Counted from the first letter of the stretch, positions 1,217 to 38,491 are shown. The stretch is 40,868 nucleotides of DNA from Candidatus Segetimicrobium genomatis (GCA_005888595.1 VBAL01000111.1:9450-50317); one strand, 5' to 3'. The notes: a model not told the origin generated them from the letters alone. A program made the numbers and translations.

Positions 1217-1291
1217 CGGGGTCAGGGAATCGGGATCAGGGGTCCGAACCAGACTCCGTATCGGCTCCCGGATCCCGGCTCCCGCGTCCCG
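1217..1291. repeat. Inverted pair of degenerate heptamer arrays (GGGRTC-like / GGMTCCC)
   Basis: cggggtc agggaat cgggatc aggggtc ... ggctccc ggatccc ggctccc gcgtccc, between groES and groEL. Confidence 0.7.
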
Positions 1292-1297
1292 CTGTTG

Positions 1298-1615
1298 CTA
1301 CTTCTTGCCGGCCGTCACGGGCTCGCGCTCAAAGACAGCCAGAATGTCGCTGTGCCGCAGGATCAGGTGTTCAACTGTATCGATCTTGAATTCGGTCCCG
1401 GAATACTTCGCATAGAGGACCTGATCGCCCACCTTGACGTCCAGGGGCAGTCGCTTCTCGCCCTCCTCGTCCCACTCTCCCGGACCGACGGCTACGATCT
1501 CACCGCGCTGGGGCTTCTCCTTAGCGGTGTCGGGCAGCACAATCCCGCTCTTGGTCCGGTCCTCGTCCTCCATGGGCTTGACCAGCACGCGGTCTCCAAG
1601 GGGCCGCAACTTCAT
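1298..1615 (-). CDS. groES: Co-chaperonin GroES
   Basis: [13 protein letters not shown]...[31 protein letters not shown] upstream. Confidence 0.98.
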
Positions 1616-1640
1616 AGGTATTCCTCCTCTACGGCACGGA

Positions 1641-1667
1641 TTAGCACTCGAGGCTTGTGAGTGCTAG
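1641..1667. promoter_or_regulatory. CIRCE element (HrcA operator)
   Basis: TTAGCACTC-gaggcttgt-GAGTGCTAG: one mismatch to TTAGCACTC-N9-GAGTGCTAA, located just upstream of groES. Confidence 0.95.
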
Positions 1668-1675
1668 GCACCACT

Positions 1676-1704
1676 ATCTTAGAGGGGTCTTGCCTCTCGT
1701 TCAA
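1676..1704 (-). promoter_or_regulatory. SigA-type promoter of groESL
   Basis: Minus strand TTGAAC-17 nt-TAAGAT immediately upstream of the CIRCE element. Confidence 0.75.
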
Positions 1705-1867
1705 GCCCATTCGGCGTGATCATCTCCCAAGTGTGGGGATCGTCCCCGGGGCCGCTTGGGCCCTCCTGGAGGTTACCGGCCCTTGCGTTCGCGCCACGAG
1801 CGTCTGCAGGTGTAAGCCGTCCGGGGCGGGGGCATGCAGAGAGTACCCACGGTTCCGGAGGCGCTGG

Positions 1868-35297: not shown

Positions 35298-36497
35298 TCA
35301 GATCGGCGTCCGGGCAGCCGGCGCCAGTCGCGCGTACTGCGGCAGCGGGCCGACCAGCGGCCGGATATAGTCCATATACGCGGAGGTGACATCGTAACCG
35401 GAGGGAGCGATGAACTCCTCCGGCACGCGGCGGATGTCCCCTACCACCCGGTCCAGCGGCACCGCGCCGGTCGTACTCCGATAGACCGGACCCCGCTCGC
35501 GAACGAGCGTCATCATCGTGCCGCCGCGTCCGGCCACCGCCTCGCGCACCGCCGCCTGTCCGACCCGGTAGGCTTCCTCGGCATCCACACGAGAGGACAG
35601 GAGGGCAGAGACGCGCTGCATCGTACCGGGCTTGTCGAACCGGGCCTTGATCTGCAGATGCGTCATCACCAGATCGCACAGCACCGCGCCGACGCCGCCG
35701 AACTGTGGCCGCCCCAGCGGATCGGCTTCGACGGGTCGCTGAGATGCCGCCAGGAACTGCCCGCGCTCATCGACCAGCCCTTCGGCGGCCGCGATGAGCA
35801 CATGCCCGCGCTCGCGATGGACGCGTTCCACGTCGGCGAGGAATCGCTGCCTGACAAACGGACGCTCCGGCAGATAGATCAAGTGCGGCGCGTCACCCTC
35901 TCGCTGGCGCGCCAGCGCCGTACTGGCCGCCACCCACCCGGTGTGACGGCCCATCGTCTCGACCACCTTCACCGGATCGGCCGTGCCGATGGCTTCGGTG
36001 TCAAGCCCCGCTTCGCGGACCGATACCGCCAGCCATCGCGCCACGCTGGGATGCCCGGGGCAGTGATCAGTCTCGACCAGGTCGTTGTCGATTGTTTTGG
36101 GAATCGCGATGACCCACAGGTCGTACCGCAGGTCCGCCGCCCGGCGATGCAGCCTGAGCGCCGTCGCCGCAGACCCGTTCCCCCCGATATAAAGGAAGTA
36201 CCGGATGCCGCGGGCCTGGAAGATACGCATGATCCGGTCCACGTCGTCATCGCCCAGACCCGCCCGGGAGGTGCCTAATGCCGCCGACGGGGTGCGGCGC
36301 AGTTCCTCCAGCATTTCGGAGGACACGCGGCGCAGGTCGACCAGGTCTTCCCGTAGGAGTCCCAGCACTCCGAACCGCATGCCGTAGATCTCGCCGATCG
36401 CGTCGTGACGCAGGGCCTCCTGGATTACGGCCACCAGGCTGGCATTGACCACGGCGGTAGGACCGCCGGATTGACCGACAATAAGGTTCCCGCGCAT
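35298..36497 (-). CDS. PfkA-family sugar kinase (PPi-PFK-like clade with GGNGS)
   Basis: GQSGGPTAVVN, GGNGS, PKTIDND and MGR motifs; ATG overlaps the iolO stop. Confidence 0.88.
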   Translation of the reverse strand: MRGNLIVGQSGGPTAVVNASLVAVIQEALRHDAIGEIYGMRFGVLGLLREDLVDLRRVSSEMLEELRRTPSAALGTSRAGLGDDDVDRIMRIFQARGIRYFLYIGGNGSAATALRLHRRAADLRYDLWVIAIPKTIDNDLVETDHCPGHPSVARWLAVSVREAGLDTEAIGTADPVKVVETMGRHTGWVAASTALARQREGDAPHLIYLPERPFVRQRFLADVERVHRERGHVLIAAAEGLVDERGQFLAASQRPVEADPLGRPQFGGVGAVLCDLVMTHLQIKARFDKPGTMQRVSALLSSRVDAEEAYRVGQAAVREAVAGRGGTMMTLVRERGPVYRSTTGAVPLDRVVGDIRRVPEEFIAPSGYDVTSAYMDYIRPLVGPLPQYARLAPAARTPI

Positions 36498-37303
36498 CAC
36501 GCGCTCAACAGCGGACGCAGGTGAGCAATCGCCTGCCGGGCCGCACTTACCGGATCCGGACGCGGCAGGATTTCTGCCGACAGGTACCCCGTATATCCGA
36601 GCTCTCTCAACACGCGGACCAGCGCAGGGAAATCTAGGTGTCCCCACCCGGGGGCATGGCGATTACTGTCTGCGACATGCACATGGCGGAGGCGCGGTCG
36701 GGCGCGGCGGAGACTGCTCTCGATCGACGCCTCTTCGATGTTCATATGGAAGGTGTCCGCGAGGATCCCCAACGCTGGCGAGGCCAGCCGGTTGATGAGA
36801 TCGAGCACTTCATCCATGGTGACGAGGAAGTCGGTCTCGTACCGATTCACTGGCTCGAACACAACAGGAATCTTTTCCCGCTCGGCGAGGGGAAGGATCC
36901 GGCGCAGGGCACCGCTCAGCCGTGCCTCCGTCGCGGCGCGGTCTCCGGTGATCCGCCCCCGTAGCAGGCCCACGATCACCGCCGCGCCAAATACCGTCGC
37001 TATGCGAATGTGTGTCTCCAATCGTTCGATGGCGCGCGCACGGATGCCTTCGTCGGGGTGTGAGAGGCTCAAGCCATCTTTGAGATACGCCTGGCCCGTT
37101 CCGATGGCCGGAACCGCGAGCCCTGCGTCGCGCACCGTCCGCAGCACCGCCTCAGCGTCGACCTGCGAGGGATCGCGCACGGCCAGCTCGACCCCGTCAT
37201 AACCCAGGTCCGCCGCCGTGCGCAGGGCCTCTCGCCATGATCCGCGCATCGCCACCGCGTCGAAACCGGTCTCTTCGAGCGAGACGACGAGGCTCAGCTT
37301 CAC
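36497..37303 (-). CDS. iolO: 5-keto-L-gluconate epimerase (Thermotoga IolO-like)
   Basis: MKLSLVVS..FDAVA, ELAVRDP, AIGTGQAYLKDGLSL, EPVNRYE, DTFHMNIEE and HVADSNR; adjacent to iolN. Confidence 0.85.
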   Translation of the reverse strand: MKLSLVVSLEETGFDAVAMRGSWREALRTAADLGYDGVELAVRDPSQVDAEAVLRTVRDAGLAVPAIGTGQAYLKDGLSLSHPDEGIRARAIERLETHIRIATVFGAAVIVGLLRGRITGDRAATEARLSGALRRILPLAEREKIPVVFEPVNRYETDFLVTMDEVLDLINRLASPALGILADTFHMNIEEASIESSLRRARPRLRHVHVADSNRHAPGWGHLDFPALVRVLRELGYTGYLSAEILPRPDPVSAARQAIAHLRPLLSA

Positions 37304-37315
37304 GGAAAGCTACGC

Positions 37316-37399
37316 CACCAGGGCACCAGGGAACCAGGGGAACCATGCCTGCATGTGACTGTGGCACGCGGTACCTTGGTTCCCTGGTCCCTTGGTCCC
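37316..37399. repeat. Inverted octamer arrays (MACCAGGG)n ... (CCYTGGTY)n
   Basis: caccaggg caccaggg aaccagggg aacc ... ccttggtt ccctggtc ccttggtc. Confidence 0.8.
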
Positions 37400-37413
37400 G
37401 CCGTTGTCTTCAA

Positions 37414-38379
37414 TCAAGGTGGCCACCCCAAACTGTACAGGCTCTTGCCGCCACGGGCGGGTCCCTTCAGGACGGCCTCCAGTTCTTCCTTGTCACGCTC
37501 GGTGACCAGCTCCATCGGCGGTAGCTTCCCCGGCGGGAACGTCTTGATGACGTCGGTGACGAGCCGCTCGATGTAGTCCAGCAAAGCCTCCACCCCGGGG
37601 AGCGCCTTCTCGGCCTTCGCCAGCGACGGCTTGCCAACCACGCCTTCGATATACGCCTTGACCTCGATAGGGCCGGCTCCGATGTGGCCGTACCAGTTGA
37701 TGGGGCGGCGAAGCAGGTTGCCGGCTTTGTCCACATGGCCCTCCGGCAGGAAACCGAACGGGTTGTTGTCCACGGCCCACTCCTGTTTCATCAGCTCGGG
37801 GAACAACGCCAGGCACCAGGAGGTCTCGACCTCATCGGCATGGATGAACGGCGTCTCATACGGGCCACCCTGGGCCTTAAGTTTGAAGTGATCCTGAACG
37901 GCATGGTACCAGTTCAGGTTGATAACCAGTGCCGGCACCCGGTAGCGCTTGCCAAACTGATGGATGGCGGTGGGAATCACGTACTCCTGTCCGTGACCAT
38001 TCAGCAGGATCTGTTTCCGGAAGCCCATGTTCCAGAATCCGGCGATCATGGCCCGCAGGAAGCCCGTAAAGACCTCCTCCGGGATCACCACCGTGCTCGG
38101 CATGCCGAGATGATGATACGGATGCGATCCCCACCACAGCGGTTCGGAGACGGTACATCCCGTGCGCTCTGCCACCGCCTCCGCCATCCGCGTCACCAGG
38201 AAGATATCCTCACCAATCGGCGCATTGGGCCCATGCGCTTCCGTCGCACCGAGGGGCACGATCAGGACGTCGTTGGTTTTCAGACGTTCCTCAATGTCGC
38301 GCATCGTCATCGTTTGCAGATAGACGCCGGTGCGCTTGTCCATGTGACCGCCCTTCGGCGGCAAACTCCACTTCGCCAT
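37414..38379 (-). CDS. iolN: 3-dehydro-scyllo-inosose hydrolase (creatininase family, Thermotoga IolN-like)
   Basis: GVYLQTMT, TEAHGP, GED, NGHGQE, PFIHADEVETS and YIEGVVGK, close to the recalled T. maritima IolN sequence. Confidence 0.88.
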   Translation of the reverse strand: MAKWSLPPKGGHMDKRTGVYLQTMTMRDIEERLKTNDVLIVPLGATEAHGPNAPIGEDIFLVTRMAEAVAERTGCTVSEPLWWGSHPYHHLGMPSTVVIPEEVFTGFLRAMIAGFWNMGFRKQILLNGHGQEYVIPTAIHQFGKRYRVPALVINLNWYHAVQDHFKLKAQGGPYETPFIHADEVETSWCLALFPELMKQEWAVDNNPFGFLPEGHVDKAGNLLRRPINWYGHIGAGPIEVKAYIEGVVGKPSLAKAEKALPGVEALLDYIERLVTDVIKTFPPGKLPPMELVTERDKEELEAVLKGPARGGKSLYSLGWPP

Positions 38380-38394
38380 TGCTAACCTCCTCTG

Positions 38395-38491
38395 AGTGAT
38401 TAGTGATTCGTGATTAGTGATTCGTAAATTCGCGAAATCAAGTAACCGACGCGCCTCCCAAGATCTTGCGAATCACGAATCACTAATCACG
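38395..38491. repeat. Inverted heptamer arrays (GTGATTM)n ... (GAATCAC)n
   Basis: agtgatt agtgatt cgtgatt agtgatt ... gaatcac gaatcac taatcac; contains the ATPase stop. Confidence 0.88.

Follow-up and report, generated by a model that had tools for sequence, protein, structure and literature searches.

How does a genome come to carry, in one intergenic region after another, a tandem array of short units that faces an array of the same type in reverse complement? The question is raised by a stretch of 40,868 nt from Candidatus Segetimicrobium genomatis (GCA_005888595.1, VBAL01000111.1:9450-50317), hereafter the window, which is C12:9450-50317 of the host genome (G000; 2.94 Mb in 325 contigs, 64.4% G+C, 87.8% complete) and which was compared with two sister genomes, G001 and G002. 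An initial annotation of the window had noticed about 13 such loci and had proposed either an active generating or mobilising mechanism or a shared RNA-processing function. Each of these mirror elements is built from an array of about four units of 7, 8 or 9 nt that are typical of its family, then an unrelated loop, and finally the same type of array in reverse complement. Our analysis confirmed that the observation is real and genome-wide, and we give about an even chance to the reading that mirror elements are non-coding foldback repeats which live and turn over at the DNA level, with their arms copied between loci.

The pairing of arrays was assessed in the host genome on 2211 merged Tandem Repeats Finder (TRF) arrays with a period <=20, using 200-nt flanks and a score >=14. 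An inverted partner within 200 nt was found for 501 of the 2211 arrays, compared to 21 with a direct, 6 with a reversed and 40 with a complement-only partner; inverted pairing was thus about 24 times commoner than the direct control and clearly above chance. It was confined almost wholly to periods 7 (263/524 arrays), 8 (105/386) and 9 (126/539), while periods 6, 10, 11 and 12 gave 0/99, 1/123, 1/88 and 0/224, respectively. Merging of the paired arrays resulted in 265 elements, for which the median was 95 nt for the whole element, 27 nt for the arm and 34 nt for the loop. This excess, as well as the single polarity of each family described below, bears out the view of the initial annotation that the layout goes well beyond random slippage. 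Within a comparison set from other phyla (80 loci, 1.4 Mb), 25 of 948 arrays had an inverted partner, and most of these belonged to Chitinophagaceae, where A+T-rich 7-, 8- and 11-nt arrays show the same mirror layout (L026:8260-8420, L071:16700-16950, L050, L051 and L058) and, in L026 and L071, lie on both sides of a typical intrinsic terminator. The architecture thus extends beyond a single phylum.

Inside the window, TRF found 7-, 8- and 9-nt arrays at all the loci listed by the initial annotation, and the longest inverted repeats were exactly these arrays opposite their reverse complements. Ten of the 13 paired loci reached the ungapped inverted score of >=14 by which we called compact elements, two were weaker, and one was real but split by 3.7 kb (Table 1); the array near 7142, annotated as a lone arm, did lack a partner. 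The ten compact elements were called at 5283-5396, 6597-6659, 10332-10384, 12875-12997, 27651-27750, 29360-29505, 30821-30938, 32641-32737, 37318-37397 and 38397-38491. The long hairpin expected at each locus was likewise recovered in eight window elements, with predicted folding energies from -43 to -79 kcal/mol for the sense-strand RNA and z-scores between -2.7 and -9.5. No Rfam family was matched in the window at gathering thresholds.

The units fell into 109 exact classes, the largest of which, GCAGAAC, GTGATTC and GTGAATA, occupied 20, 20 and 19 loci, respectively. Hence the claim that the loci have unrelated units does not hold for the set as a whole, since units form families of up to about 20 loci that are shared across genera. 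A unit has a conserved core and one to three variable positions, as in GCAG+ANN and GTCTNC+NNN, and within a family the arms are alike and begin in the same phase while loops and flanks are unrelated. Every unit family has one fixed polarity; G exceeded C in the left (5') arm of 132/142 7-mer and 50/57 8-mer elements, but of just 3/65 9-mer elements. Stop codons in all frames were considered as a cause of this polarity and rejected, as GCAGAAC arrays, inspected by eye, contain no stop codon in either arm. Along the contigs, neighbours of the same family were weakly clustered (15 pairs versus 9.2 ± 3.0 expected).

The two arms of an element are not tight mirror copies. Their in-register identity was 0.868, compared to 0.822 with the unit order permuted, the lengths of left and right arm were hardly correlated (r = 0.17), and neighbouring units were often unlike at the variable positions. 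Loops measured 15-79 nt (5th-95th percentile) and were for the most part unique: 213 of 230 had no other match in the genome and the 17 matches were mostly residual units, so that an origin of loops as copies of other genome sequence was discarded. Nor are they native spacer, given their lower G+C (51% in arms and 55% in loops, compared to 62% in native spacers and 65% in the genome) and their lack of structure, with 5.7% of loops folding at z < -2 as compared to 19% of native spacers.

Gene positions were taken from our own simple codon-usage finder (2779 genes, 86% of the genome; distances to starts are approximate). Mirror elements make up 7.1% of the intergenic bases and 0.85% of the genome, and 247 of the 265 lie between called genes, the spacer being codirectional for 200, convergent for 31 and divergent for 16; another 4 lie inside genes and 14 at contig edges. 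The position relative to stop codons, which the initial annotation had asked to be tabulated, had a median of 4 nt past the stop codon and 18 nt ahead of the next start. Per kb of native spacer there were 1.03 elements in codirectional, 0.78 in convergent and 0.23 in divergent spacers, i.e., an about four times lower density where promoters lie.

Evidence for turnover came from orthologous sites. DNA identity over the window was 93-97% for G001 and about 80-87% for G002, and G000 and G001 differed at 11.35% of 4-fold sites (126,778 sites, 644 genes). Sites 5282, 6596, 29784 and 37316 are empty in G002 (1-24 nt), and sites 12872, 38395, 1217 and 27650 have another or an altered unit in one relative. 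Genome-wide, the left-flank anchors of 95 elements matched 1.12 Mb of G001, and the 53 sites that could be resolved, classed by eye, comprised 40 with the same family (13 of them clean 1:1 pairs), 8 with another or a changed unit, 3 arm truncations and 2 absences. Loops were inverted between G000 and G001 at C252:9757, C224:10522 and C59:1494, and whole elements come and go with precise limits, a stop codon on one side and the ribosome-binding site that follows on the other. At 10320 the element, loop included, is shared with G002 but missing from G001, and was therefore lost in G001; at C2:13466 both G001 and G002 lack the element, which was therefore gained. The spacer between rplK and rplA holds a GTCTNC element in G000 and G002 and a different 9-mer family in G004, and is empty in G001, G010, G011 and G017, a distribution by which the element was lost in G001. 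The polarised events are thus one gain (C2:13466) and two losses in G001 (10320 and rplK-rplA). Since gain, loss, family replacement and loop inversion occurred precisely at orthologous sites of the sister genomes, some active process generates or copies the elements, as the initial annotation had supposed.

Beyond the genus, a search of 40 relatives detected GTGAATA and GTCTNC 9-mer arrays in some genera of the same taxonomic family and, beyond it, in few genomes. Counts of the forward and the reverse pattern were similar across the relatives searched, and the reversed-pattern controls gave 0 matches in every genome except G026, with 2 matches to the 9-mer pattern; G033 was among the genomes with no pattern match. 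The density of paired arrays ranged widely, from 187 per Mb in G001 (1.12 Mb) and 170 in G000 (whole genome) to 20 in G012 (398 kb), 15 in G027 (200 kb), and 0 in both G013 (349 kb) and G024 (193 kb).

The gain, loss and resizing of elements, the inversion of loops, and the likeness of arms within a family with no likeness of loops led us to the foldback reading given at the outset. We infer that the arm sequence, and not the loop, is copied from locus to locus; slippage would then resize the arms, recombination between the inverted arms would flip the loops, and insertions would be tolerated only at the 3' ends of genes. When transcribed, the elements would form very stable hairpins, which might stall exonucleases or serve a double-strand RNase as a cleavage site. 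Stems of -40 to -80 kcal/mol come to lie within operons in this way, the rplK-rplA spacer among them, and expression is therefore probably affected, yet this hairpin effect seems to be a by-product, or to have been co-opted later, and not to be what maintains the elements.

Several observations weigh against this reading. No copying mechanism has been demonstrated, and for the gain at C2:13466 neither a visible target-site duplication nor a donor sharing its loop was found, its closest relative being a single 30-nt arm match to an element 9.3 kb away. That elements are four times rarer in promoter spacers is as compatible with function as with tolerance. Moreover, in the 13 clean pairs, which were preselected at >=75% identity, arms differed at 49/778 positions (6.3%) and loops at 68/491 (13.9%), compared to the 11.35% of 4-fold sites, and the lower divergence of arms would fit some constraint on them. 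Strong purifying selection on the unit cores was nevertheless rejected, because an initial contrast of 0.7% versus 11.2% proved to be an artefact of realigning arms by whole units, and clean alignments gave 6.5% divergence at core and 6.1% at variable positions.

The enzyme that we considered as a candidate mobiliser is a HUH transposase of the type associated with repetitive extragenic palindromic (REP) sequences, the REP-associated tyrosine transposase (RAYT). Two PF01797 genes are present in G000, at C216:1062-2009 (82.9 bits on NF047646, the RAYT model, with a cut-off of 80) and at C88:3466-4440 (65.2 bits, below the cut-off), and both encode HUH and Y motifs, the latter YxHxNP-like in the C216 gene. 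Within the taxonomic family, all five PF01797-positive genera (g1, g3, g4, g5 and g6) show pattern matches, although G012 of g5 has 0 pattern matches and other units instead; g2 has neither PF01797 nor pattern matches, and among seven g7 genomes, which have no PF01797, only G013 has a single 9-mer match. This co-occurrence is drawn from related genomes, which are not independent samples, and it has exceptions in both directions that add to the case against arm copying by such an enzyme: G027 has arrays and no PF01797, G024 has PF01797 but no paired arrays in 193 kb, and G012 has 4 PF01797 matches yet few paired arrays. Furthermore, neither of the two RAYT-like genes of G000 is flanked by arrays, the mirror element nearest to the C216 gene being 3 kb off. 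Judged from gene content, a RAYT-like mobiliser of mirror elements is a candidate, though rather an unlikely one.

The C88 gene is instead flanked by its own 20-26-nt inverted repeats containing GTCAAGTCTTGAC (C88:3325-3350 and 4558-4585; L082); repeats with GTCAAGTCTTGAC are almost confined to this contig, and tandem 16-mers lie nearby. A further repeat in the window, at 33481-33570, is an imperfect palindrome of about 85 nt (arms 33484-33522 and 33529-33567) that is dispersed over about 68 loci in G000 and dozens in G001 and G002, with a depth spike in contigs from soil sequencing runs. It looks like a classical element of the type of REPINs (hairpin-forming REP doublets) or MITEs (miniature transposable elements with inverted repeats), and it may, equally with the arrays, be the partner of the RAYT-like genes.

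Among the alternatives to foldback repeats, we consider it rather unlikely that the elements are selected RNA structures, acting as a 3' hairpin that stabilises the upstream mRNA, a terminator with no U-tract, or a double-strand RNase site, as proposed for REP sequences and bacterial interspersed mosaic elements (BIMEs). The placement directly past stop codons and ahead of the next ribosome-binding site, the depletion in divergent spacers, the stability of the stems (down to z -9.5) and a divergence of arms at about half the neutral rate in clean orthologues would all be expected of such structures, Xanthomonas arrays are mostly transcribed according to the part of the report used here (PMC4692102), and Chitinophagaceae arrays bracket intrinsic terminators. 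On the sense strand of the 200 codirectional elements, however, G:U-type mismatches (155) were not above A:C-type mismatches (169), and TTTT within 10 nt after the 3' arm occurred in just 6 of these 200 elements (T fraction 0.26, versus 0.32 on the mirror side), so that the U-tract of an intrinsic terminator is lacking; the shared RNA-processing function suggested by the initial annotation is thus not supported. In addition, the same spacers are empty in close relatives, even between rplK and rplA, the order of units shows little mirroring, the lengths of the two arms hardly correlate, and pairing alone leaves unexplained why a family keeps one polarity and why the same unit recurs at about 20 loci. 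This recurrence, across genera and always in one polarity, also speaks against a purely local origin, in which a small hairpin would grow in place by slippage and template switching between its arms (quasi-palindrome correction). Changes in unit number between sister genomes and within the population, the 109 different unit classes, and the fact that heptamers are the commonest slippage-prone unit in bacteria, as stated in the part of PMC4679880 used here, are what a local process would produce; it does not account for a complete element in a spacer that is empty in both relatives, for sites that switch to unrelated families, or for arms which have varying neighbouring units and are not mirror copies, and we regard it as improbable.

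More improbable still is that the arrays are binding sites, with a core and a variable spacer every 7-9 nt read by an oligomeric nucleic-acid-binding protein, in which case the convergent layout and not the hairpin would matter. TRAP and HutP do read spaced triplets, and the composition of units, their fixed polarity and the somewhat conserved arms agree with this idea; dozens of cores would, however, need many readers, no candidate protein was identified, and core and variable positions diverge alike in the clean orthologues.

An assembly or binning artefact, which the fragmented, incomplete metagenome-type assembly might have led one to suspect, has next to no probability. Orthologous elements are present in two further genomes of the genus, and independently assembled Logan contigs from four soil runs of four studies (X1-X4), the best-matching of which may be the sample that the window itself came from, run across the elements at 29359, 32636 and 37316 as well as both island junctions of the split element with 0-2 differences. 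Thus 29360..29505 is spanned by X1 and X2 contigs with 0 differences, 32641..32737 by an X2 contig (32382-33001) and 37318..37399 by X1, X2 and X3 contigs, while the left arm of the island (20127..20202) lies within an X2 contig (20071-20718, 0 differences) and its right arm (23879..23910) within an X1 contig (22974-24241, 1 difference). X3 and X4 contigs carried one extra 8-nt unit (GCAGTCGA) after 29786. Contig joints inside elements, such as from 27678 to 27714, most likely represent other copies of the same family. Several G001 and G002 contigs end beside mirror elements of the window (e.g., the starts of G001:C51 and G002:C16), which suggests that mirror elements break short-read assemblies; as a practical matter, contigs of these metagenome assemblies seem to break where the elements lie.

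The split element at 20127/23879, located between convergent genes, encloses an island of 57.6% G+C, compared to 64.3% in its flanks. None of its four open reading frames (ORFs) had a match in Pfam, PADLOC or NCBIfam. A 239-aa ORF (20613-21332) has 56 homologues, none functionally named (hypothetical where named), with paralogues on contigs C123, C244, C162 and C205, and a 564-aa ORF had no usable relative in the Atlas and a structure model with a predicted local distance difference test (pLDDT) of 0.28. At the same site G001 holds a different insert of 4.8 kb and G002 one of 0.56 kb; with a different insert in each of three genomes, the loop of 20127/23879 is therefore an insertion hot spot. 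The left end of the G001 island (L095, G001:C51, about 7781-12593), where the left array is missing, resembles a tRNA 3' end (T-arm, acceptor stem and CCA), as found at an integrase attachment site. Intergenic palindromes of the REP/BIME type are known as insertion hot spots (Tobes and Pareja 2006, via the part of PMC4692102 used here), and the split element is alike in this respect, although one locus was examined here and no insertion sequence (IS) was identified in the insert. The proposal that spacers of mirror elements contain genes therefore has one clear case and is not general, since among 281 pairs of lone arrays within 15 kb at a score >=14, 11 were inverted and 6 direct, which is not significant. 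Inverted arrays 5-12 kb apart that bracket same-strand gene runs (C122:111-146 with 8066-8100, C101:2121-2154 with 14111-14141, and C176:3062-3102 with 8044-8072) may be due to chance, and operon-flanking long-range arrays as a class were dismissed on the same counts.

Table 1. Arrays and mirror elements of the window, with their state at the orthologous sites of the sister genomes.
Position	Feature	Units	Arm, loop, score or fold	Surroundings and sister genomes
1212..1291 (strand n/a)	Weak mirror element	GGGNNNN-type heptamers vs GGNTCCC-type	Inverted score 8, below threshold	Kept in G001; GGGAAAC/GTTTCCC element at same site in G002
5283..5396	Mirror element	TAGTGAA/CTATTCA 7-mers	Arm 31 nt, loop 52 nt; RNA fold -61.4 kcal/mol	Flanked by two minus-strand genes; G001 same arms, loop unalignable; G002 empty (24 nt)
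6597..6665	Mirror element	GTGATTN/CGAATCA 7-mers	Score 14	G002 empty (6 nt)
7153..7176	Lone arm	CGGGGTT 7-mers	No inverted partner (inverted score 5)	
10332..10403	Mirror element	GTGATTC/GAATCAC 7-mers	Passes threshold	Homologous loop in G002; absent from G001 (44 nt)
12875..13011	Mirror element	GTGAATA/CTATTCA 7-mers	Loop 65 nt; passes threshold	GTGATTC-family element instead in G002
20127..20202	Left arm of split element	GTCTACCTAGTCTTCCCG	4.2 copies	Starts 5 nt past stop codon
20203..23878	Island within split element		3.7 kb	Four ORFs
23879..23910	Right arm of split element	AGACT-type 9-mers		Abuts stop codon of convergent gene
27651..27750	Mirror element	GGGACTN/NAGTCCC 7-mers	Fold -67.2 kcal/mol	Between convergent genes; kept with loop in G002; G001 only GGGATYN left arm
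29360..29505	Mirror element	GTCTACNNN 9-mers	Arm 49 nt including unique foot (TAACTGC...GCAGTTA); fold -79.2 kcal/mol	95% identity to G001 counterpart
29784..29871	Weak mirror element	GCAGTCGN/GCGAGACT 8-mers	Score 10	G002 empty (1 nt)
30804..30938	Mirror element	GTCTACNNN 9-mers	Longest array of the window (8 copies); passes threshold	Fewer units in G001 (134 nt vs 191 nt between anchors)
32641..32737	Mirror element	GTCTNCNNN 9-mers	Loop 15 nt	Kept in G002
37318..37399	Mirror element	ACCAGGGN/GGTCCCTN 8-mers		G002 empty (2 nt)
38397..38491	Mirror element	GTGATTN/GAATCAC 7-mers	Passes threshold	G002 same family, different loop; G001 GCAGTAN-type element instead

Two other features of the window deserve mention. 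A non-repetitive insertion of 100 nt at 16798-16898 lies in a divergent spacer and is absent from G001 (18 nt) and G002 (24 nt), and the minus strand at 8541-10268 encodes an ATP-dependent DNA ligase of 575 aa that has the N-terminal, the adenylation and the C-terminal domain, which could matter if break repair shapes the elements.

Our literature search on paired or palindromic tandem repeats returned one relevant report (PMC4692102), of which, as of the other papers cited here, parts were used. GGGAATC heptamer arrays of Xanthomonas have about four units and are mostly intergenic, near or overlapping stop codons (Rehm et al. 2015, PMC4692102), and two nearby arrays are convergent on opposite strands in 70 (Xcc) and 75 (Xac) cases; the number of units varies between related species, the repeat type is usually kept, and the parts used report no IS association (PMC4692102). 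The mirror elements are alike in forming intergenic arrays of about four units at stop codons and nearby convergent pairs, but as far as these parts describe, the Xanthomonas arrays have one G-rich unit, read as a G-quadruplex former, whereas we found at least 109 unit classes with periods of 7, 8 and 9, in a host of another phylum where pairing is the rule. Judged by unit sequence, most of our units lack G-tracts of the GGGNATC type and would be unable to form G-quadruplexes; GGG is present in only some families (GGGACTN, GGGATCN) and missing from the three largest. Convergent heptamer pairs are thus already described, as far as the parts of PMC4692102 used here go, and what is new is the many units, the periods of 7-9 and the documented turnover, including gain, loss, family replacement and loop inversion.

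The initial annotation had likened the arrays to the short tandemly repeated repetitive (STRR) sequences of cyanobacteria, which Mazel and colleagues are said to have described in 1990 as a few heptamer units in tandem at many intergenic loci. Dispersed tandem heptamers at many intergenic loci are common to both, although the mirror elements also include 8- and 9-mers and many unit types, and the units differ. The closest named relatives of a window protein are from Armatimonadetes genomes (52-59% identity), and the host, which lives in soil, is by protein similarity Armatimonadota-like, not a cyanobacterium, so that the comparison is only an analogy. STRR arrays are mostly described as direct, with few pairs found in Nostoc (PMC4692102), and the TAACTGA repeats of Beggiatoaceae are direct as well (PMC4679880), both as given in parts of these reports. 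Of the interpretation offered by the initial annotation, the active process beyond slippage stood, whereas the cyanobacterial framing, the RNA processing, the wholly unrelated units and the general presence of genes in spacers did not.

REPINs and their RAYTs (PMC3116915, PMC3337134, in the parts used) resemble our system in having an inverted doublet of a short conserved sequence, a hairpin, hundreds of extragenic copies and several families per genome, and a RAYT-type gene is present here as well. In a REPIN (Bertels and Rainey 2011, PMC3116915), each end is a unique 16-25-mer, the distance between the two ends is fixed (71 bp for GI), and the spacer pairs and can be aligned. In contrast, the ends of mirror elements are tandem arrays of variable length, their loops vary in length, are unstructured and cannot be aligned between copies, and the RAYT-like genes have no arrays at their flanks. 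MITEs differ as well, since the internal sequence of mirror elements is unconserved and neither the gain nor the empty sites have a visible target-site duplication. The foldback (FB) transposons of Drosophila have long inverted arms of short tandem repeats and variable loops that can hold unrelated DNA; they are eukaryotic, of kilobase scale and share no sequence or enzyme with the mirror elements, and the analogy is thus an architectural one only.

A bolder form of the foldback reading, which we consider speculative and quite unlikely, is a prokaryotic class, not recognised before, in which only the arms are heritable between loci and an enzyme writes convergent, family-specific unit arrays around arbitrary filler DNA. 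A RAYT-like HUH protein or a templated repeat-adding activity might then act on an intergenic break, at its two 3' ends.

The spread of identical short tandem repeats to unrelated intergenic sites has been an open question since the first cyanobacterial descriptions. The paired arrays published for Xanthomonas are built from one unit, whereas this genus carries many families side by side, in three genomes at graded divergence (about 5% and 18% DNA difference) that record a gain, two losses, family swaps, loop inversions and a one-unit polymorphism. With many families, graded genomes and dated events, the question of origin is therefore directly testable. If arrays are indeed written around filler DNA, this would explain their fixed polarity, the unique loops and the likeness of a new copy to its relatives in the arms alone, and the same process would lie behind the STRRs of cyanobacteria, the paired heptamers of Xanthomonas and the arrays of Chitinophagaceae.

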